Origin: Candidatus Doudnabacteria bacterium
Lineage (GTDB): Bacteria; Patescibacteriota; Doudnabacteria; UBA920
Direction: 5' to 3'
NCBI GenBank assembly: GCA_963788395.1
Contig: CAWBGV010000028.1
Location: forward strand, 18,102 to 82,101
DNA: 64,000 bases
Made by a program: the position numbers and the translations under genes. Below the pieces are notes generated by a model. The model was not told the origin of the DNA, ran no database searches, and saw only the letters and a list, made by a program, of their open reading frames with translations. The first letter of the stretch is position 1, and each line of letters starts with the position of its first letter. Of the stretch, positions 45,157-56,226 are shown piece by piece.

Positions 45157-46329
45157 TTAGCTTTTTATCTTCACAAATTTTCTTTTCCCAACCTGTAAAA
45201 CTATCTCCGCCCCGGCTTCTAGTTGTATATTCTGTTCCGACACCGTCTGCTGATTCATTTTAATGCCTTTTTGATCAAACAATCGACGAGCGTCGGATTT
45301 GCTCGAAGCAAGCCCGGTATCTGTCACTAGTTGAATCACCGAGTACGTCCCCGGCTTCATTTTTTTTACTGCAATTTCTTCGGGTAATTCGCCTTTGCTG
45401 AACTGGGCAATAAAGGCCTGCTTGGCCTCGGCCGCTTTGTTAGCACTATGATATAAGGCGGTTATTTTTTCGGCTAAAATAAGTTTTTGGTCGCGGGGGT
45501 TGTTATTTTGGGAAATAATAGTCTGGATTTCTTCCAGCGGAACGCGTGTGGCCAAGAATAAAAAATTTTTTTATTAAGCCGTCATTAATAGACATTACTT
45601 TACCGAACATGTCGTTAGGCTCATCGGTAATATTAATCACGTTTCCCCAGCTGGATGACATTTTTCGGCCATCAGTCCCTTCCATCAGCACTGTCATAAG
45701 TATGTCTTGCGGAGCCTGTTGGTAGGCCGGCTGGATGGTTCTGCCGGCCAATAAATTAAAGCGCTGGTCGGTACCGCCTAATTCTACGTCGGCTTTAACC
45801 GCAACGGAATCGTAGCCTTGCATAATCGGATAGAGCAGTTCCCGAAGCGAAACCCGCTTACCGGCTTTTAACCGGAGGGCGATGTTTTCGCGGGCTTCAA
45901 ATTCGGGTGCAGCCCAAATAAATTAGCCATCCGGCCGATCTCGATAAAGCCTAATTTTTTAAGCCATTCTGAATTATAGTGGGTCTCGGTCTTTTTTTTA
46001 TCAAGTATTCTAAAAGCCTGCTCAAAGTACGTTTTGAGATTTTTTTTAATTTCCGCTTCACTGAGCATGGGACGTTCGGCGTCTTTATCGGAAGTGTCGC
46101 CAATCAGCCCGGTAAAATCTCCTACTATAAAGATAACCTTATGACCGAGTTCCTGGAACTGCCGCAGTTTCCACAAAACTACTGCCCGACCAATATGGAT
46201 ATTGGGGCTGGTGGGGTCTATACCCAGCTTTACTCTTAATTTTTTCTTGCCATTAAGCAATTGCCGCAAGTGGTCTTTTTCTATGACTTCATCCACGCCG
46301 CGGGTAAGGAGTTCGTCTATGGGGTTCAT
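45157..46329 (-). CDS. tyrS: tyrosine--tRNA ligase, two apparent frameshifts
   Basis: HIGR (HIGH motif), GGTDQRFN, KMSSS (KMSKS), C-terminal S4-like domain. Pieces: 45868-46329, 45503-45823 and 45157-45555. The shifts lie near 45913-45918 and 45548-45572. Confidence 0.9.
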
Positions 46330-46876
46330 ATGATTATATAATATCAGTTTTTTATGAACCCTTCCAACCGATCCACTTGACAACTCTTCCTAAACCCTTT
46401 AATATAACTAAGGATTTAGAAATTAAATCTTGGAGATTAAAAAAGGCATAACACCGCTAGTCCAATTTTACTCTTATGTAAGCCAAATCTGCTAACGCAG
46501 AAGGTTGATTATAAGGGGTCCGCCAATAGGTGGAAAACTAGGACACTTCAAGTAAGAAACTTGGGTGTTTTTTTAGCCCCTAATTTCCAACACTGCTCTT
46601 TAACAGCTGAATAGTGATTAGAATTTTGTACAAAACCATCGCGTCTCAATTATTTAAACCAATTGAGATGTGAAAACCCGAAAATTTCCGTCCCGGAAAT
46701 CTCGGGGTAAAGTTACGTCAATTTACTAGAGTTCAATGATAATTTATAAGCTTTAATAATTGAGCTTTTCCCAAATCAATTATGCCAGATTTGTATCATT
46801 TTGGTACGGATCGAACCGGATACTATAGATTCCGTTTGGTTAATTCCAAACACCAAGAATTTATTTATCTTTTATA

Positions 46877-46920
<44 letters not shown>

Positions 46921-47623
46921 GACATGCAAGTCGAGTGGGTTTAGACCCACGGCGAACGGGTGAGTAATACCTAGGAATGTCCTTTAAGTTGAGCATATCC
47001 CATCGAAAGATGGTGCAATACTCAATGTGAACAGTGCAAGCACTGTAGATCCCGTTACTGGAATTTACAACGCTTGCGTTTTTAAAGTCGCAAGACGCTT
47101 AAAGCGCAGCCTGGGCACCATCAGCTAGTTGGTAAGGTAATGGCTTACCAAGGCTATGACGGTTAGGGGCCCCGAGAGGGGAAACCCCCACACTGGAACT
47201 GCGACACGGTCCAGACTCCTACGGGAGGCAGCAGTTTGGAATTTTGGACAATGGGCGAAAGCCTGATCCAGCGACGCCGCGTGGACGATGAAGGCCTTCG
47301 GGTCGTAAAGTCCTTTTGCTCGGGAACAATTTTTGAGCGTACCGAGAGAATAAGAGGTTGCTAACTCTGTAAGCCCACACAGGTGGGTTGGTGCAGAGAG
47401 GGTGTAGTAATACATCCTAAGAAAATTTCGCTATATGCTGGAACACCTTGTAAGTTCTGTAGTACTTCCAAAAGAAGTGACAATCTACAGGAAACCCAAA
47501 AAAACGCACCGCTGCGTATAAGGGTTGCAAGACAATCAGCAGGCAATCCTGACGTAAATTTTTGGAAAAAAGAAAACGGAGACAGCCAGTAGCTATCCCC
47601 GTCATGTATTTGGTTTTTGGTTA

Positions 47624-47695
47624 TCATCGGTCAGCGGTTCTATACAAGATGCCGACTACCCCTACGATTACAGTAATTACGATAATCAACCACAT
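47624..47695 (-). CDS. 23-aa hydrophobic peptide encoded antisense within the 16S insertion
   Basis: aaggagg, 7 nt, ATG, MWLIIVITVIVGVVGILYRTADR*. Its stop overlaps (ATGA) the start of the 88-aa ORF 47361-47627. Confidence 0.4.
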   Translation of the reverse strand: MWLIIVITVIVGVVGILYRTADR

Positions 47696-47718
47696 ATTTC
47701 ATCCTCCTTGAACCGTTT

Positions 47719-47747
47719 AAGATAACACAAGTGGATGATCAAGTCAA
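47719..47747 (-). promoter_or_regulatory. sigma70-type promoter for the antisense peptide cassette
   Basis: On the minus strand: TTGACT, 17 nt, TATCTT, about 20 nt upstream of the SD. Confidence 0.45.
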
Positions 47748-48391
47748 TACAGTTGGCTTCCAAAAATTTGCGTCAGGCGAGCCTCAGAGACTACACGCGA
47801 AACTCCCACGTTAAGGTGGGATGATGATATAGTCCACGCTTCATGGCGACATGAAGACCTGGTCCCGAAAGGGGCCCCCAAATTGCTTTTTACATTTTAG
47901 TTTTTTCGACCGAGAGGGAGAAAAAAACATAGAGAAAAGGAATTTGGGGAAGAGGAGCGCTTCACGGAGACGGCACAAAATAAATTTACAATTTATTTTG
48001 TGGAGTCGGAGTGAAGGGCGACGAGCCAGCAGCAGCGGTAATACAGAGACCTCAAGCGTTATCCGGAATCATTGGGCGTAAAGCGTACCGATAGGTGGTT
48101 TACAAAGTCAGAAGTGAAATCCAAAGCTTAACTTTGGGACTGTCTTTTGAAACTTGTAAACTAGAGGGGCAAAGAGGAAGCTGGAACGAACGGTGTAGTA
48201 GTGAAATGCGTTGATATCGTTCGGAACACCAATAGCGTAGGCAGGCTTCTGGGTGCCACCTGACACTGCTAGGACGAAAGCGTGGGGAGCGAATGGGATT
48301 AGATACCCCAGTAGTCCACGCTGTAAACGATGATGATTAGGTGCTAGAGAGTATCGACCCTCTTTAGTACCATAGCTAACGCGTTAAATCA

Positions 48392-48442
<51 letters not shown>

Positions 48443-48446
48443 ACCT

Positions 48447-48480
<34 letters not shown>

Positions 48481-49260
48481 GTAAGCGAGGAACCTTACCA
48501 AGTCTTGACATGTACCTGCATACTCTGGAAACAGAGTAGCCTTCGAGGGTGGTACACAGGTGATGCACGGTTGTCGTCAGCTCGTGCCGTGAGGTGTTCA
48601 CTTAAGTGTGAAAACGAGCGCAACTCCTATCATAAGTTACAAGTGTCTTATGAAACCGCCGGCGTTTAAGCCGGAGGAAGGCGGGAATGACGTCAAATCA
48701 GCGTGTCTCTTACGACTTGGGCGACACACGTGCTACAATGGGGAGAACAAAGGGACGCCAAGGAGCAATCCGGAGCAAATCCTATCAATACTCCCCCCAG
48801 TTCGGATTGAGGGCTGCAACTCGCCCTCATGAAGCCGGAATCGCTAGTAACCGTGGATCAGCCTCGCTACGGTGAATACGTTCTCAGGTTTTGTACACAC
48901 CGCCCGTCAAGCCATGGAAGCGGGAAGCGGCTAAAGTACCTTTATGGTCCTAGGCCGAAGCTCGTAACTGGGGCTAAGTCGTAACAAGGCATCGGTAGCG
49001 GAAGCTGTCGATGGATCACCTCCTTTCTAAGGAACTTTATGCATCCTTTTCCCTTTTCGAAGGGGAATGTTGGTGCACATTCCATTGGTCGTCGTTAATT
49101 TTTTCGAAAATTAGCGCACTTCTTGAAACTTCAAAGAACGACGTAAACTGGTGGTTTTGTAAGGTAATTCTACCGTATTTAGCAATAAATACGGCCTGAG
49201 CGCCAAAATGCTCGGGGTCACTATTTAGCCGTTAAAGGCTTAACACGAAATTGCAAAGAA

Positions 49261-49290: not shown

Positions 49291-49365
49291 ATGTTCTATG
49301 CAAAAACGTCACTTGAATCAACCGCTAAAGTAGGAACTTTAGCGCCAATCTCCAATGATTTGACA

Positions 49366-50262
49366 ATGAGCCAGCTCATTCCGCAGTTCCTGAAGTACGG
49401 CCAGTTTGAATTAATGTTCTCACAAAACACGCTTTTAAAATACGACGAGTGCTTAAAGTGGGTAGTCAGGGACATCGGCGACGTGAAGGTCACCGAATTA
49501 AACCTATTCCATTTCACTGAATTAAAGCAAATAATAACGAACCGTGGTTGCGGCACCAGCCGTGTTGCTTCCATGGTGTTTTCCATGAAAAGTTTCCTAA
49601 AGTATTGCAAGGACTATCTGGAGTTGCCGGTGATGGATTACAAAAAAATCCGTAGCCCAAGGTTTAAGCGCCGGGAAGTGATTTACTTAACTAATGAAGA
49701 AATTGAGCGATTTGTCAGCGCCATTAAAATAAAGAATGGCCCTCGCGCTACTAAGCCGGTGCGTATGGACGGCCTAAGATTTAGGGTCTTGGTAGAAGTC
49801 CTTCTTGGTACCGGCATGCGCATCTCTGAAGCTTTGTCACTAAACCGCGATATGGTCGATTTTGAAAAGGCTGAGGCCAAGATTATCGGCAAAGGCAGCA
49901 AGGAACGCACCGTGTTTTTTAGCAAGCGGTCGCTGGATTGGGTTAAACGTTATCTGTCCCTACGCACAGACAATGAACCCGCATTGTTTCTCACCCAGCA
50001 GAATACGCGCCTGTCCAAGATAGATGTCCCCGGCTTCTTTAAGCGCTACAGCAAGAAGGCCGGTATAACCAAGAAACTGACGCCGCACGTGCTCAGGCAT
50101 ACCTGCGCCACAAACCTGTTGTTTAACGGCTGTCCCATAAATAACGTTCAAGTAATTTTAGGCCATGACCGCTTGGAAACCACTTGCCGTTATTATCTCG
50201 GCGTTGACAAAACTAAGGCCAAGGAAGCGCACGGCAATTATTTAAATTATCAATTGTCGTAA
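49366..50262 (+). CDS. tyrosine recombinase (XerC/D-like integrase)
   Basis: SAM-like N-domain, then ARMDGLRFRVLVEVLLGTGMRISE, HVLRHTCAT, LGHDRLETTCRYY. The ORF opens at 49291, directly after the terminator, so the internal ATG (MSQLIPQF) is preferred. Confidence 0.8.
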   Translation: MSQLIPQFLKYGQFELMFSQNTLLKYDECLKWVVRDIGDVKVTELNLFHFTELKQIITNRGCGTSRVASMVFSMKSFLKYCKDYLELPVMDYKKIRSPRFKRREVIYLTNEEIERFVSAIKIKNGPRATKPVRMDGLRFRVLVEVLLGTGMRISEALSLNRDMVDFEKAEAKIIGKGSKERTVFFSKRSLDWVKRYLSLRTDNEPALFLTQQNTRLSKIDVPGFFKRYSKKAGITKKLTPHVLRHTCATNLLFNGCPINNVQVILGHDRLETTCRYYLGVDKTKAKEAHGNYLNYQLS

Positions 50263-51038
50263 TTCATGAACTTTGTGTGTGCCGCTTTCAGCGCCCGTTT
50301 ATCGGTTCCCAGATAATACTGGGCCGTGGTGCGAATGTCCGAGTGCCCCAAAAGTTCCTGAATATACCGGATGTCGCAGCCATTTTCCAACATGATCGTC
50401 GCGGCAGTGTGCCGCAGCGTATGCGGCGTGACTTTTTTCTTGATCCCGGCCTTGGCGGCGTATCTTCGAAATTCCTTGCCCAAATCGTAACGAGCAAGCC
50501 GCTTGGCTTTGCCGAACGTCACGAACAAGGCCGGGTTGTCATCGGTTCGGCTTTGCAGGTACTTGTTTATCCATTCCAAAGCGCGGTCGTTGAAGAAGAC
50601 CACTAATTCCTTATTGCCCTTAACGATGATCGTCGCCTCTTTTGTCTGCAAATTTATACTGTCGCGGTTAAGGTTTAAAGTTTCCGAAATGCGGCCGCCG
50701 GTGTCTAAGAGCACTTCCATTAAGGTTCTTGCTCTTAAGCCGTATTTAGTATTAACGTCAATGCTGCCTAACAGCTGCCGGACCTCGTCTTTGGTGAGGA
50801 AGACAACTTGGCGTTTTGGGATTTTCATGGGCTTGATCTCCTTTGGATCTAAAGTCGGGAGTTTATGAACATCCCGACAATAAGTTAAAAATTTTCTTAA
50901 TGAATAGACGAATGAATTGACTCGGGAAGGGCCGCAGCCGCGCCCCGTTGCGCGGGAGATCCGCGCCAGGGTTTGTTTTTTTATTTTAGTGACGTGCTCA
51001 AGCCTTAAATCAGACGGGTTTTGAACTTCGGGAAGCAT
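50250..51038 (-). CDS. tyrosine recombinase (XerC/D-like integrase)
   Basis: GLRARTLMEVLLDTGGRISE, HTLRHTAAT, LGHSDIRTTAQYY. It converges on the previous gene, and their 3' ends overlap by 13 nt. Confidence 0.85.
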   Translation of the reverse strand: MLPEVQNPSDLRLEHVTKIKKQTLARISRATGRGCGPSRVNSFVYSLRKFLTYCRDVHKLPTLDPKEIKPMKIPKRQVVFLTKDEVRQLLGSIDVNTKYGLRARTLMEVLLDTGGRISETLNLNRDSINLQTKEATIIVKGNKELVVFFNDRALEWINKYLQSRTDDNPALFVTFGKAKRLARYDLGKEFRRYAAKAGIKKKVTPHTLRHTAATIMLENGCDIRYIQELLGHSDIRTTAQYYLGTDKRALKAAHTKFMNYDN

Positions 51039-51220: not shown

Positions 51221-51436
51221 CTAAGTCCGAGATTTTGGATGACTGGATCCATAATTAAATTTTATTAGATTTTGAATTGCCTGATTTTTATAGAAATTCT
51301 TTTTATATTTGTTGATTATGATATCTCCAAATCCGGCCATCGTCTTGCACGGTTTATTTGTATCTATAAAATCGTGATTCTCTTTCGAGATCCGGAGGCG
51401 TTCTTTGAATCTGCTGTTTTTATAATCTTTTTTCAT
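51221..51436 (-). CDS. hypothetical protein
   Basis: 71-aa basic ORF. Confidence 0.35.
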   Translation of the reverse strand: MKKDYKNSRFKERLRISKENHDFIDTNKPCKTMAGFGDIIINKYKKNFYKNQAIQNLIKFNYGSSHPKSRT

Positions 51437-51806: not shown

Positions 51807-52115
51807 TCAAAATAAGACCGGCACTTTTTGGATTTGCGGCACAGGTATAGGCTGGAAAACAAATCGTTTCTCTGCCGGGCTATTTACCTCAGTTTCCTGT
51901 CCGCCACGATGGCCGTTCAGCTTTTCCATGTACGCAAGAACCTGTCTTTTTGTTGAGCCGTCATAGTCATCCCTGTCAACAAGCCTGTTAAAGGCACGGT
52001 GGAGACGCTGGCGGCAGAAACCTTGCTCACTGATAGCCGCTGCGAAAATTGTCAGGGTGCTACCATTTGGGATTCGCTTTGAGGTTATTTCAAAGCGTCG
52101 TTCTATCGATCTCAT
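51807..52115 (-). CDS. hypothetical protein
   Basis: 102-aa ORF. Confidence 0.4.
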   Translation of the reverse strand: MRSIERRFEITSKRIPNGSTLTIFAAAISEQGFCRQRLHRAFNRLVDRDDYDGSTKRQVLAYMEKLNGHRGGQETEVNSPAEKRFVFQPIPVPQIQKVPVLF

Positions 52116-52518: not shown

Positions 52519-52770
52519 CTAATGAATCTTTTTGGATAAGTTCTTATAAGCTTCCCAATAGGTTTTTGCGTCTGCCCGGAGTTCTTCGTTGTTGTTATAT
52601 TTTTTTACCAGGTCATCAATTTTGGGGTCATAATCAAAACAAAATTCTGTTCTTTTGTTTTTATTTTTGCCCACTAATTTTAGATGATAACCTAAAGCAC
52701 ATAGTGCCGCTGCAATGCCTAGATGAGTGGTGTTATATATTTTTCTATTAGACTGCTTTGCTATCTCCAT
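52519..52770 (-). CDS. DUF5659-like small protein
   Basis: THLGIAAALCALGYHLKLV…EFCFDYDP…, a pattern I associate with DUF5659 (from memory). Confidence 0.5.
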   Translation of the reverse strand: MEIAKQSNRKIYNTTHLGIAAALCALGYHLKLVGKNKNKRTEFCFDYDPKIDDLVKKYNNNEELRADAKTYWEAYKNLSKKIH

Positions 52771-53299
52771 ATTGTTAATTCACCACGAGTTAAGATAATG
52801 GTGGGTCATACGCAAATTATGGTTCTAACCGTATAGCTTCGCTACCCGGAAAAAGAAAAACTTAACATCGGTAACACCTCGGACTAAAGCTCTAAAGCCT
52901 TTAAGTAATATACACATTATCCGCATCGCTGTTGCTTTCAATTAAGTTAAACCAGTCAAATAATCCTTGAGGGAAAATTATCTCAAAAACTTTTTTGTCA
53001 ATTTGCATATAACGGGATTGTTAATGATGGCAATCCTATTATACCGATTTAAGATTTAAGCGTCACCCACTATTGCGTATGAGCCATAATGGTCTTTATC
53101 GCCTATATCCTCTATGCGGCTCCAACCTTTTACTAACCAGCAAAAATTAACTGTGTCCTGCTTGGTAATTGTTTGACAGTACCGGCTACTTAGGAAGATT
53201 GCCATTTTCGATTTTAAGTCTTGTTTTCAACGGGCATATTTAGAAATTAAGGAGTCATATACATATCAGTTTGCTCCCATACAGAATACATATTTATAA

Positions 53300-54530
53300 G
53301 TATTTTAGGAAATTTTTAGAAGTGAAGCAAAACGGTTTTTGTTACTGGATAGTTTCCATAGATATGCCAGTATAGTTATTTTTTGCTCCATCGTCCATAG
53401 GGGTATTGTAACATAGGGCTGTTTGAATTTTGTTTGTCTGGCTGTGCGAACGCCAATACACAGGGGTAAAATGGCTTTTGGTGTGTTTGGTGTTTGACAA
53501 ACAGCGGTCATTATCTAAAGTTTCATCGCACTGTTTCACTGGCTAAAATTGACCACATAATTTCTATGATAACCTTCTTTATGCCGGCAACTTCTTTTAA
53601 CCATTTTTACCCTGAGTAATTTTTGTGTAAATGTGTCCCGTTAACGCACCAAATCAGGGGTATATTTGATGTTAAACGGCGGCTGTGTAATCTTTTGCGT
53701 ATTTTGGGAAAAAGGTTTTGGCTGAAAATACGTGCATAATTTTTGCATAGGCCGATTAAAATATCCCTAATAAATTGCCTATTATATTGCTTTAAGGGGT
53801 CGGTACATATTCTTTGCATATTTTGGTAAGGTAAATTGCTACAGAAAATTTGTTAGTCTATACTGTACTCAATCTTTTTAAAGGGTGTTCAATTTTTGTT
53901 CAATTCCCCGCATAACACCCTTATTAAAAGGCTATTTTGATGCCCTACACAGCTGCTGTGCATTTTTCTGTGCAATTTTATAGGATGCGCATTTTTTGCG
54001 CACCCCCTTAAAATAAGCGAATAAATGGCTGATTTTAATACTTTACTTAGGCCCTCCGCACTTTTTTGCGCATTTTGAAGGTTGGGCACGTTTTGGGCAC
54101 TCGCCCTAAAATAGCCTTCTTAATAGGCTAATAATCTTCATTTTTTATAAGATTAGCATTTTTTGGTCATTCCGAGCCGAAAGTAACCTTATGGGTAAAT
54201 TTTGGGTAATTGTGTCACGTTCACCCGCCAAATCAGGGGCATATGTGATCATTAAACACCGTTGGGTAATCTTTTGGGTAAACTGGTAATGGTTTCACTG
54301 GCTTTAATTGCCCGAATAATTTTTATGGTATATCAGTATAGTTCTTCTTTGTTGTCGTTGATATGCTGATTTTAGACCCTTGGGGCATTTTTGGGGCATT
54401 GTGTCCGGAACGCCCGTCAAAACAGGGGTATATTGGGGTCTAAAAACCGTTTGGGGAATCTTTTGGGGAATTTGTTAATATTTCACTTGCTTTAATTACC
54501 CGAATAATTTTTATGGCAAACCTATCGGGT
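53300..54530. repeat. degenerate ~190-bp tandem array with helically phased word-T4-word dyads (iteron-like)
   Basis: The scaffold word cac(t/g)gcttt/aaaattg… occurs at 53537, 54296 and 54484. Dyads: gggtaaattttgggtaa (54193), gggtaatcttttgggtaa (54264), ggggcatttttggggca (54382), ggggaatcttttggggaa (54453), gggcacgttttgggcac (54084). Confidence 0.75.
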
Positions 54531-54594
54531 TTTGGCACCGATTAAGTCAGTCGGAATAACAGTATATCCGGCAACCGTGGCTGGCTCAATTTAC

Positions 54595-55371
54595 CTATAT
54601 CCTCTTCATCTGCTGGATAATCGTGTTAGCCAGCTCACGCTTGTCAATCAGGTATTCGTCCCACTTGTTGGACTCTTTTTTCTTGCGGCCAGCTACAAAG
54701 CCCAGCAGGTTGCCCTCGCTTAAACGATTGGCTTTTTTAAGAAAATCAGGAGCAGGGACGAACCATAGGTAGTCCCACAGGTCGCCACGCTCGGTATCAA
54801 AAAAACAAAAGATTATGCCCATGGAAAAACTGTCCACGACGTTGTGGGTTTTCACCGTGGCCGTGAAGGCTTCACCGGAGTCGTCCCCAAACCGGCTCTT
54901 CACTTGTAAGTACATTATTTTGGGCACGCCTTTTTCTTTGACGATAATGTCGATACCCTCGTCGTCCGAGATTGGCCGGTAGCAGGCCAGGCATCTTTCC
55001 CCGTAAAGCGTGATCAGTTCCGCGACCCGGGCTTCGGTAATATCGCCTTTTTGCCGTTCGGATATACCATCCGCGATTTTGAATATTTTTTGTTCCTTTA
55101 CCTCGGCCGCTACCGTAGCGGGGGTTTCCACAAACTGTAGGTTAAGGGCATAGGTGGAAGGACCTGTTTTAATAAACCGTGATTTGTCTTTTTTGGAATT
55201 GACGTCCACTAGGATGGTGGCGTTCATGGTCGCTTCTGGCGTCTTACCGGCGGTTTTTAGCCAACCGCGTTTAAGGGCGATGTCCGTAATCTCTTTGCTG
55301 TGCAAAGACTTGTTTGATTCACGCAGGATTTCGTATGCGATGTCTTTAAATGAGTTCATATGATGGGTCAT
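54595..55371 (-). CDS. HARE-HTH domain + PD-(D/E)xK-like restriction-endonuclease-fold protein
   Basis: N-terminus FKDIAYEILRESNKSLHSKEITDIALKRGWLKTAGKTPEATMNATI (HARE-HTH). C-terminus …DDEGIDIIVKEKG…YLQVKSR (D…(D/E)xK). Confidence 0.6.
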   Translation of the reverse strand: MTHHMNSFKDIAYEILRESNKSLHSKEITDIALKRGWLKTAGKTPEATMNATILVDVNSKKDKSRFIKTGPSTYALNLQFVETPATVAAEVKEQKIFKIADGISERQKGDITEARVAELITLYGERCLACYRPISDDEGIDIIVKEKGVPKIMYLQVKSRFGDDSGEAFTATVKTHNVVDSFSMGIIFCFFDTERGDLWDYLWFVPAPDFLKKANRLSEGNLLGFVAGRKKKESNKWDEYLIDKRELANTIIQQMKRI

Positions 55372-55476: not shown

Positions 55477-56226
55477 TTATAGTCCAACCGCGTTAGCTCC
55501 GTACTCTGCTTGTTCTTGTGTGAATTTATCATATTCCAACTGCGCAATTAAACTGCCGCGTGAAAAAGCTGAATAGCTCATGTAGTCTTTGGCCTTTGCA
55601 GCTGCCTCCGCATCCCAGTTAGCACCGGAATTATCTGCACCATAAGTCGCATCAGCCTGTGAAAATTGGTCGTACTCCAATTGAGCAACCAATCCATCAT
55701 GAGAAAATGCTGTGTAATTTAAATAATCTTTTGCTTTTGCAACAGCATTTTTTTGACTAACTGTTTCATTTGATACTGGTGAAGTATTTTGATTGTCTGT
55801 TTGTGGAGCTTGCGTTGGCTGCGGGGTTGCAACAGGCGCAGGTGTAGTAGCCGCTGGCTGTTTTGGTTGAGGGTTGGCAGGAATAATTGGTGCGGCTTTA
55901 GTTGTTTTTGGTGAGGTCGCTGGAGCTACCACTACAGCAGAAGCCGGGCTGGTTGTGTTTGTGACCGAGGGAATAACCGTGTTTTGATTTGCCACAGCGG
56001 CCTGCTGTTGAGGTTGGGTGGTAGCTTCATTGCTAACCGTGTTACTTTTCGGACCTGTAGCGCCGATCAAAAATAGAAATACAGTCATGGCAATCCCAAA
56101 AGTCACGCTCGTATTTATTCTATTTGCTTTGCCTCTAAAAACTTTATTAAACCACACAGGTTTAATTAAACCCATTATTAGTCCCACTACACAGAGAAGG
56201 AATAATAAAACAAAAAAACCGGACAT
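55477..56226 (-). CDS. Ltp-family surface lipoprotein-like protein
   Basis: N-terminal TM segments, a Pro/Thr/Ala/Gln-rich linker, and two Ltp-type repeats (AKAKDYLNYTAFSHDGLVAQLEYDQFSQADATYGA and AKAKDYMSYSAFSRGSLIAQLEYDKFTQEQAEYGA). Confidence 0.7.
   Translation of the reverse strand: MSGFFVLLFLLCVVGLIMGLIKPVWFNKVFRGKANRINTSVTFGIAMTVFLFLIGATGPKSNTVSNEATTQPQQQAAVANQNTVIPSVTNTTSPASAVVVAPATSPKTTKAAPIIPANPQPKQPAATTPAPVATPQPTQAPQTDNQNTSPVSNETVSQKNAVAKAKDYLNYTAFSHDGLVAQLEYDQFSQADATYGADNSGANWDAEAAAKAKDYMSYSAFSRGSLIAQLEYDKFTQEQAEYGANAVGL

Follow-up and report, generated by a model that had tools for sequence, protein, structure and literature searches.

A non-coding array of about 1.1 kb (53420–54520) has been identified in a 64,000-nucleotide stretch of DNA from a Candidatus Doudnabacteria bacterium (contig CAWBGV010000028.1, positions 18,102–82,101; the whole stretch is referred to here as the window). 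The array is composed of eight modules, designated uA, uB, M0–M3, u2, and u3, each of which contains two co-oriented dyads. A dyad is formed by one 6–7-bp word that occurs twice, around a T-run followed by a G. Comparison with an orthologous array in a related genome, located on a 700-kb contig (L017), indicates that the array is under selection and that the copies of a word change jointly. The array may, at somewhat less than even probability, be a set of DNA-level binding modules for dimer-of-dimers proteins, in the manner of parC, iterons, or pho-box operators.

The start-to-start offset of the two dyads is 70–72 bp in 13 of 14 modules, eight of them from the window and six from L017. In these 13 modules, the words begin at positions 0, +11, +70 to +72, and +82 to +84; the half-sites are 11 bp apart in the left dyads and 11 or 12 bp apart in the right dyads, and all 52 of them point the same way. 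The gap-free line-up, which starts from the first G of word 1, includes seven modules of the window and six of L017. The interval between the dyads is occupied by two unrelated types of scaffold of equal length. The long type (TTGTGTCNCG..CCAAATCAGGGGTATAT..) is present in uB, u2, and u3, with uA as a degenerate copy. The short type (..TTAAAATA.CCCTTNTTAAAAGGCT..) is present in M0–M3, four modules of about 100–150 bp that form the middle of the array (53733–54172). Short-type scaffolds are AT-rich (TAAAATA, TTAAAAGG), whereas those of the long type are not. For six of the eight short modules of the two genomes, the TAAAATA sequence, which resembles a −10 element, follows the second word of the left dyad at a constant distance of a few bases. 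The plus strand of the array is rich in G+T, and the module-to-module distances are 97–189 bp. A unit of approximately 190 bp, as given in a preliminary description of this DNA, fits the steps from uA to uB (193 bp) and from u2 to u3 (189 bp); the true unit, however, is the two-dyad module with its 70–72-bp offset.

Dyads were counted as clusters of exact 6-mer repeats with spacers of 4–6 nt, and 1000 dinucleotide-preserving shuffles served as the control. The segment 53401–54530 contains 10 clusters, whereas the shuffles contain a mean of 0.77 ± 0.84 and a maximum of 5, and the observation of the preliminary description is real and stronger than first given. The remaining 62 kb of the window contain 33 clusters, or about 0.5 per kb. 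No strong 10–12-bp peak is present in a periodogram of the array; the phasing of T-tracts is limited to the dyads and has no long-range helical component. About 10 different words are used in the array, with two to four occurrences each. The left dyads share the invariant frame TG-N-K-N-A-W-TTTTG-N-K-N-A, in which the TG at the start of word 1 and the TTTTG leading into word 2 are constant, and three or four letters between them vary by module. The words differ between modules, as had been noticed before; they are therefore variants on a TG-N-K-N-A frame and not free hexamers. The word positions reported earlier are correct for GGGTAA (54193, 54204, 54264, and 54276), GGGGCA (54382 and 54393), GGGGAA (54453 and 54465), and GGGCAC (54084 and 54095), the dyads of GTTCAA, CTGTGCA, GCGCA, and TGCATA are present, and the recurring scaffold anchor is real (53533, 54292, and 54480).

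In L017, six orthologous modules (M0', M1, M2, M3, u2, and u3) are positioned downstream of a HARE-HTH gene (P0001, 10001–10765), in the same orientation as in the window, and the HARE-HTH proteins of the two genomes are 98% identical. The proteins differ in 4 of 254 residues, yet 40 of the 104 fourfold-degenerate sites of their genes are changed (38%), which corresponds to very strong purifying selection on HARE-HTH and provides a neutral yardstick of about 62% identity. The identity of the arrays is 90–94% in u2, 94% in the spacer between u2 and u3, 86% in u3, and 80% in M1 and M3, whereas M0 (66%) and M2 (64%) are about neutral. Since most of these values exceed that of the fourfold-degenerate sites, the array is under selection. 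In M0 and M2, the dyads are intact and at the correct distance in both genomes despite the near-neutral drift of the scaffolds. Insertions and deletions have changed the intervals between modules (100 bp in the window and 115 bp in L017 from M1 to M2; 97 and 134 bp from M2 to M3), whereas there are none within modules, and the 71-bp offset is unchanged. The constrained features thus appear to be the dyads and their spacing, together with the scaffold sequence in modules of the long type.

The most striking result of the comparison with L017 is that the copies of a word change jointly. The left dyad of M1 is GTTCAA twice in the window and GTGCAA/GTGCAG in L017, and the four words of M2 are TGCGCA twice and CGCAC/GCGCA in the window and TGGGCA four times in L017. 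In the left dyad of M3, GGGCAC twice corresponds to GTTCAC twice in L017, with the unusual CG in the spacer kept, and in that of u3, GGGGCA twice corresponds to GGGGAA twice. According to script output and hand curation of the register, the identical change is present in both half-sites at six core positions (eight including M0), and about six positions are changed in one half-site. If the half-sites changed independently, with approximately 15% divergence at each word site, about 0.45 identical double changes would be expected (Poisson p near 1e-5). The retention of the spacer indicates that the dyads were not replaced wholesale by those of another module. The word copies would be kept alike either by selection or by local copying, such as slippage or short-tract conversion, and we infer that the identity of the words and their spacing are selected, whereas the word sequence is not. 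A 13-nt tandem duplication (GTTTCACCGGTTT, then GTTTCAC...) in the u3 tail of L017 (10850–10880, minus-strand reading), which is absent from the window, makes a new GTTTCAC dyad. Slippage-type events thus occur in the array, and tandem duplication may be a route by which dyads originate; however, slippage alone explains neither why the copy number is always two nor why the offset stays at 71 bp.

The anatomy, conservation, fixed spacing, and joint word change are observed in the sequence, and the account of protein binding, of the binder, and of the biological output that follows is a proposal built on them. A fixed length that is filled by unrelated or drifting sequence points to DNA geometry rather than RNA folding, and therefore a role at the DNA level is favored for the modules as a class. 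Two identical half-sites one helical turn apart, with a T-tract between them, are the classic side-by-side footprint of two protein subunits or dimers. Examples of such binders are the ribbon-helix-helix proteins ParR, Arc, and omega-type, and winged-helix proteins of the OmpR/PhoB or initiator type. In each dyad of the array, a small DNA-binding protein would place a pair of subunits, or a pair of dimers, on the same face of the helix, with the narrow minor groove of the T-tract between them, in the manner of ribbon-helix-helix and winged-helix proteins. Bridging or wrapping would join both dyads of a module in a single complex, and this would set the distance between them. The TAAAATA that follows the left dyad in most short modules could be a −10 element or an easily melted segment. 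The output may be the regulation or exclusion of mobile elements in the variable island, or a centromere-like or operator-like behavior, and the long units may additionally be transcribed. Phased protein-binding DNA had been put forward in the preliminary description, and this general idea agrees with half-sites one turn apart, with a 71-bp offset that is independent of the scaffold, with indels that are restricted to the intervals between modules, and with the lack of a conserved RNA fold in the short modules; its specific versions, iterons, a centromere, or operators of paralogous proteins, are unsupported.

Several observations weigh against protein-binding modules. There is no conserved candidate gene for a binder beside the array. 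HARE-HTH is encoded by the sole protein-coding gene that directly adjoins the array in both; however, it is 98% identical while the words differ, and therefore it is not a word-specific reader. About 10 words require either many binders or a reader that is indifferent to the central bases, and an indifferent reader leaves the joint change of half-sites (6 against about 0.45 expected) unexplained. Operator sets for paralogous binders, as suggested earlier, would need about 8–10 proteins, none of which is visible. The length over which the half-sites of a dyad are identical ranges between 6 and 10 nt, which does not resemble the constant footprint of a protein, and 71 bp correspond to 6.8 turns at 10.5 bp per turn, so that in relaxed B-DNA the two dyads do not share a face. 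In the long units, the words take part in some potential pairing of the plus strand, and the carriers of the array are two related genomes only. In an unlikely but more novel reading, the four copies of a module would be selected to match, whatever their letters, and the words would be read by a matching rule instead of by proteins with fixed specificity. This could be realized by a chromosomal library of decoy sites resembling centromeres, iterons, or operators, with one specificity per module, which would titrate the maintenance proteins of a range of invading plasmids or phages and so provide an incompatibility-type exclusion within a defense island. Alternatively, it could be a nucleic-acid-templated mechanism, in which module-derived RNA or slipped-strand pairing would be read by a structure-specific protein, making the modules programmable.

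Known systems resemble the array in part. In partition systems with ParR-type proteins, two adjacent direct repeats with a 10–11-bp period are the minimal binding unit, two repeat sets flank the promoter in R1 parC, and the repeat sequence varies by plasmid family and sets the specificity (PMC9426499, PMC2241845). The array shares with type II parC sites, for which plasmids R1, pB171, pSK41, and the Clostridium perfringens pCW3 family were compared, the co-oriented short direct repeats with a period of about 10–11 bp, and it is reminiscent of the R1 repeat sets around a central promoter segment. However, parC reiterates one word 4–10 times beside parM and parR, whereas the array has 2+2 copies per module, six to eight chained modules with different words, and no par genes. 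No Pfam, PHROG, or PADLOC matches to ParM, ParR, ParA, or ParB were found in the neighbors at either locus; unrelated 71-amino-acid (aa) ribbon-helix-helix-like open reading frames (ORFs) are located 1.5–2 kb away. The replication origins of staphylococcal pathogenicity islands (SaPIs) have element-specific 5–6-nt iterons on both sides of an AT-rich region, in opposite orientation on the two sides, which are read by a winged-helix domain (PMC9371898). Short repeats in two groups around a center, AT-rich in the short modules, are common to the array and to the origins of SaPIs and iteron plasmids. By contrast, the SaPI iterons lie just downstream of rep, whereas the array has no rep gene, its words are co-oriented and many, and its long-type centers are not AT-rich. 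Genes for Rep, primase, or helicase are absent from the conserved block of LOOT RNA, Ltp, HARE-HTH, and array.

The pho, PhoP, and WalR boxes consist of two 6–7-bp direct repeats with a 4–5-bp A/T-rich spacer (an 11-bp period), just upstream of the −10 element. The short modules, with TAAAATA at a fixed place after the second word, resemble these operator boxes of the OmpR/PhoB family in architecture, and a consensus promoter scan flags a single case (54083–54112, TGGGCA-18-TAAAAT). However, an OmpR/PhoB regulon uses one consensus word and the array many, such promoters have neither chained modules nor a second dyad at a constant 71 bp, and no response-regulator gene is present in the neighborhood of the array. 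The arm-type sites of integrases (Int) and the sites of excisionases and recombination directionality factors (Xis/RDF) are element-specific tandem direct repeats about one turn apart in a recombinase-rich context. The array has tandem direct repeats and a recombinase-rich context as well; however, there is no core of inverted symmetry between its dyads, the modules are too short, and the best-conserved modules are away from the insertion boundary. A CRISPR array was rejected because the logic is reversed, in that the repeated words vary and the intervening scaffolds are conserved, at distances of 97–189 bp. An integron attC array was rejected because the repeats are direct and no RYYYAAC/GTTRRRY inverted cores flank the modules. 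The parC site, iteron origin, pho-box-type operator, CRISPR, attC, and known RNA families thus each fail at least one defining feature. The building block is already known in kind, as paired direct repeats in helical phase around a center of about 50 bp. By contrast, chained co-oriented modules (six to eight) with different words, a 71-bp offset across unrelated scaffolds, and joint word evolution have not been described for any of the families compared.

Among the other explanations, a cluster of plus-strand small RNA genes, in which each long unit (uA, uB, u2, and u3) encodes an RNA of about 150 nt, has a low probability. In such an RNA, the second word copy would pair with a central anti-word and the fourth with one in the tail, at the end of which there is a run of U. 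The first and third copies would serve either as reserve strands in alternative pairings or as free seeds, and the need of several copies to fit one anti-word would preserve the identity of the words. The long units do contain complements of their own words, both in the center (ACCCG for UGGGU, ACGCA for UGUGU, and CGAAC for GUUUG) and in the tail (UUGCCC for GGGUAA and AUACGU for GCGUAU), and they fold better on the plus than on the minus strand, and so the earlier argument that direct repeats exclude RNA pairing was too strong. The consensus fold of five long units has −18.4 kcal/mol on the plus strand and −4.9 kcal/mol on the minus strand. Anti-words follow words (TTGCCC/GGGTAA, ATACGT/GCGTAT, and CGAAC/GTTTG), with mismatches that are mostly of the G–U type and specific to the plus strand, and a C-to-T change in L017 converts a G–C pair to G–U. 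Furthermore, 87% of the cells are paired, compared with 82% in shuffles and 37–55% with slid partners, and double-sided changes are present at six pairs. The RNA evidence is nevertheless weak. Single units are no more stable than shuffles (z from +0.14 to −1.58), and a swap test of each word against the scaffold and tail of every module shows no preference for its own word. The structure was derived from the same five sequences, which include two orthologue pairs, the G+T-rich plus strand inflates G–U pairing by its composition, and the C-to-A change in the u3 word is not compensated by the G-to-C change of its partner. The eight short modules have the same dyads and 71-nt register without a consensus structure (−2.1 kcal/mol), and a fixed length with freely drifting sequence, as in M0 and M2, is atypical of the evolution of RNA structures. 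There is no convincing excess of promoters or terminators and no Rfam match; Rfam 15 models run over 52700–54700 yield only three chance-level matches with E between 2 and 7.

It is improbable that the modules are cores for the initiator or adaptor of an integrated element, which would make the array a true iteron-type replication origin or parC-type centromere, as the preliminary description had considered. Two short direct repeats on each side of a center of about 50 bp, AT-rich in the short modules, do recall the SaPI origin and R1 parC, and the island holds recombinases and small ribbon-helix-helix-like ORFs. However, no gene for Rep, primase, helicase, ParA, ParM, ParB, or ParR is conserved beside the array, an origin or centromere reiterates one word whereas here the words vary by module, all repeats are co-oriented where SaPI iterons are oppositely oriented on the two sides, and the long-type scaffolds are not AT-rich. 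The cumulative GC skew climbs steadily, without a turn, from 0 to 2.69 over the window, the array included, which also led to the rejection of a chromosomal origin or terminus. A hot-spot of recombination or integration is equally improbable. The dyads would then be arm-type or accessory sites, like the direct repeats of Int, Xis, and RDF, or crossover 'pointers' that need matched copies, and elements inserting at the edge of the array would use them through their tyrosine or serine recombinases. Recombination requires matched but arbitrary sequence, which would account for word identity; the distal end of the array is the exact point at which synteny with L017 is lost, the segments that abut it there carry different recombinases (a pair of the tyrosine type in the window and a large one of the serine type in L017), and a whole module, uB, is present or absent, with dyads at the boundaries. 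By contrast, the dyads lack the inverted symmetry of tyrosine and serine recombinase core sites, 71 bp is less than a full attP-like site (judged by those of lambda and L5), and the uB indel junction has no simple crossover inside a shared word. No direct repeat joins the array edge to the other end of a putative element, and the best-conserved modules are interior, far from the break. A functionless by-product, a decaying tandem duplication with repeats kept alike by replication slippage, is very improbable. The L017 duplication shows that slippage happens, and T-runs favor it; however, parts of the array are 86–94% identical compared with 62% at synonymous sites, every dyad has exactly two copies, the offset is 70–72 bp in 13 of 14 modules while linkers accept indels, and dyads are intact where scaffolds drift near-neutrally.

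Further candidates were tried and rejected. An internal anti-word was considered for the short modules, but the complements show neither consistency nor covariation. A word hairpin based on TG..CA self-complementarity fits TGCGCA, TGTGCA, and TGGTCA by eye and fails for TGGGCA and TGTTCA, and a G-quadruplex fits the G-rich modules only. Sigma-54 or sigma-70 promoters built of words have the wrong spacing, mutagenesis by a diversity-generating retroelement is contradicted by changes that are not A-specific, and in a target-site duplication the T-run would be duplicated after word 2, which it is not. The 71-nt unit has no ARAGORN match that would make it tRNA-like. There is no conserved ORF in the array: only short minus-strand ORFs (65–70 aa) cross it, and they are non-coding, as first supposed, since their frames are broken by indels between the genomes, which also removes small coding peptides as an explanation.

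All modules are read on the plus strand. The degenerate long-type module uA (53420–53571) has the left dyad TGTTTGA-ATTT-TGTTTGT, a right repeat GGTGTG/GGTGTT at +59 instead of +71, and the tail anchor TTTCACTGGCTAAAATTGACCACATAATTTCTATGA; it lies past the synteny break with L017, and its nhmmer match is confined to the tail. Module uB (53613–53732), which is absent from L017, is of the long type, with TGAGTAA/TGTGTAA and TGTGTAA/GCGTAT at an offset of 71 and a tail. The short-type modules are M0 (53733–53822; TGCATAA/TGCATAG and TACATAT/TGCATAT, with TTAAAATA in the scaffold), M1 (53886–53976; TGTTCAA twice and CTGTGCA twice), M2 (53986–54073; TGCGCA twice and CGCAC/GCGCA), and M3 (54083–54172; TGGGCAC twice and TTAGCAT/TGGTCAT, where the right dyad of L017 is TGGTCAT twice). 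The long-type module u2 (54192–54330) contains TGGGTAA four times, at offsets 0, 11, 71, and 83, and its tail carries TTGCCC, which is wobble-complementary to the TGGGTAA word. The spacer between u2 and u3 (54331–54380) is the best-conserved piece of the array and contains TGATATGCT, which by eye may be an extended −10-like motif. The last module, u3 (54381–54520), is of the long type, with TGGGGCA twice, TGGGGAA twice, and a tail. Fragments like the M0 tail (TTTGCATAT...) and the M0 scaffold (CCTATTATA..TTTAAG) are present in swapped order at 52998–53060, 700–800 bp to the left of M0, and may be the remnant of a further module.

The array is positioned inside a 1.8-kb gap without genes (52771–54594), and both genes that flank the gap are on the minus strand. 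The HARE-HTH gene (54595–55371, Pfam 6.9e-19) has its stop codon toward the array, and some of its homologues also match PF11645, a PD-(D/E)XK model of Pfam. Close homologues of HARE-HTH (about 70% identity) are distributed across Patescibacteria and DPANN and other archaea, often beside integrases and restriction-modification genes, and this taxonomic scatter together with the frequent neighbors suggests horizontal spread. Beyond the HARE-HTH gene are the gene for an Ltp-family lipoprotein (55477–56226, minus strand) and, directly upstream of that gene, a LOOT RNA (Rfam RF03000; 56277–56397, minus strand), with 88.9 bits against a gathering score of 46.4. The block of LOOT RNA, Ltp, HARE-HTH, and array is common to the window and L017, where an extra gene, bPH_2, is inserted between LOOT and Ltp. 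The matching place of the LOOT RNA in L017 (8517–8672) has about 75% nucleotide similarity. To our knowledge, LOOT RNA has been reported from metagenomes alone, and it thereby gains a conserved gene neighborhood of Ltp, HARE-HTH, and array. To the right of the LOOT RNA is a variable stretch with a Dsr1-like fragment and an EcoRI-type methylase.

The far-side genes, across the array from HARE-HTH, differ entirely between the two genomes. The window has a DUF5659 gene (52519–52770, minus strand, Pfam), two small ORFs of 102 aa (51807–52115) and 71 aa (51221–51436), and two tyrosine recombinases (49291–50262, plus strand, and 50250–51038, minus strand), whereas L017 has a 298-aa ORF, small ORFs, and a large serine recombinase. 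The DUF5659 gene and the small far-side ORFs are absent from the L017 locus, the second carrier of the array; the link with the array that the preliminary description had proposed is therefore not supported, and the DUF5659 gene is probably not part of the feature. The tyrosine recombinase ORFs are convergent and their 3' ends overlap by 13 bp (50250–50262). The 71-aa ORF that adjoins them resembles a ribbon-helix-helix protein in its sequence, and an unrelated 71-aa Arc/omega-like ORF is located beside the serine recombinase in L017 (13213–13428). A diversity-generating retroelement with bAvd, a reverse transcriptase, and a VWA/transglutaminase target-like gene lies 7 kb past the array in L017 (18503–20765); none was seen in the window.

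The tyrosine recombinase genes begin about 270 bp past the 3' end of the 16S rRNA gene (46870–49026), the length of which, 2157 nt, is due to a group I intron (47361–47856, Rfam 55.6 bits). Matches to tyrosyl-tRNA synthetase are split over at least two minus-strand ORFs (45868–46383 and 45157–45555, in the region 45157–46383), which may reflect frameshifts, a pseudogene, or homopolymer errors of a long-read assembly. From 53586 rightwards, the array sequence is confirmed by an independent contig (L016) that is 100% identical. The protein relatives of the neighboring genes are annotated as Patescibacteria or Minisyncoccia; the source is a small bacterium of the candidate-phyla type.

Searches for further copies leave the array known from the two related genomes only. 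Arrays are absent from the loci of HARE-HTH homologues with 82–89% identity (L018–L024) and from those of Ltp homologues with 58–78% identity (L025–L028). At two of the latter (L027, 7534–8519, and L028, 2373–3358), a 985-bp stretch without called genes and without dyads follows Ltp, in place of HARE-HTH and the array. The unspecific pattern CAGGGGYATAT-N50-78-TTTCACTKGCT gives only chance matches without dyads in genome and metagenome contigs of unrelated taxa (L001–L015), and viral contigs scanned with DNA patterns and protein queries give nothing or chance matches. There is no blastn match of the array in phage and plasmid collections, no match to the concatenated stop-free six-frame translations of both arrays (1072 aa) used as a protein query, and no further copy in 349 kb of sequence searched by nhmmer with profiles of both unit types. 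Look-ups of exactly identical neighbor proteins return the same organism only (L016 and L029). The rule of a dyad repeated at 71 bp is itself a search pattern for further arrays.

Genomes of Patescibacteria are tiny and have little room for non-coding DNA. In such a genome, the conservation of a 1.1-kb non-coding array above the level of synonymous sites therefore makes a function very likely. The grammar of the array, with its dyad pairs at 71 bp, its many words, and their joint change, is unusual and provides a clean, testable case of selection on identity rather than on sequence. Modules that serve as binding sites, each with its own specificity, would represent a new way to organize or exclude mobile elements; modules that act as RNAs would represent a new family of modular riboregulators.

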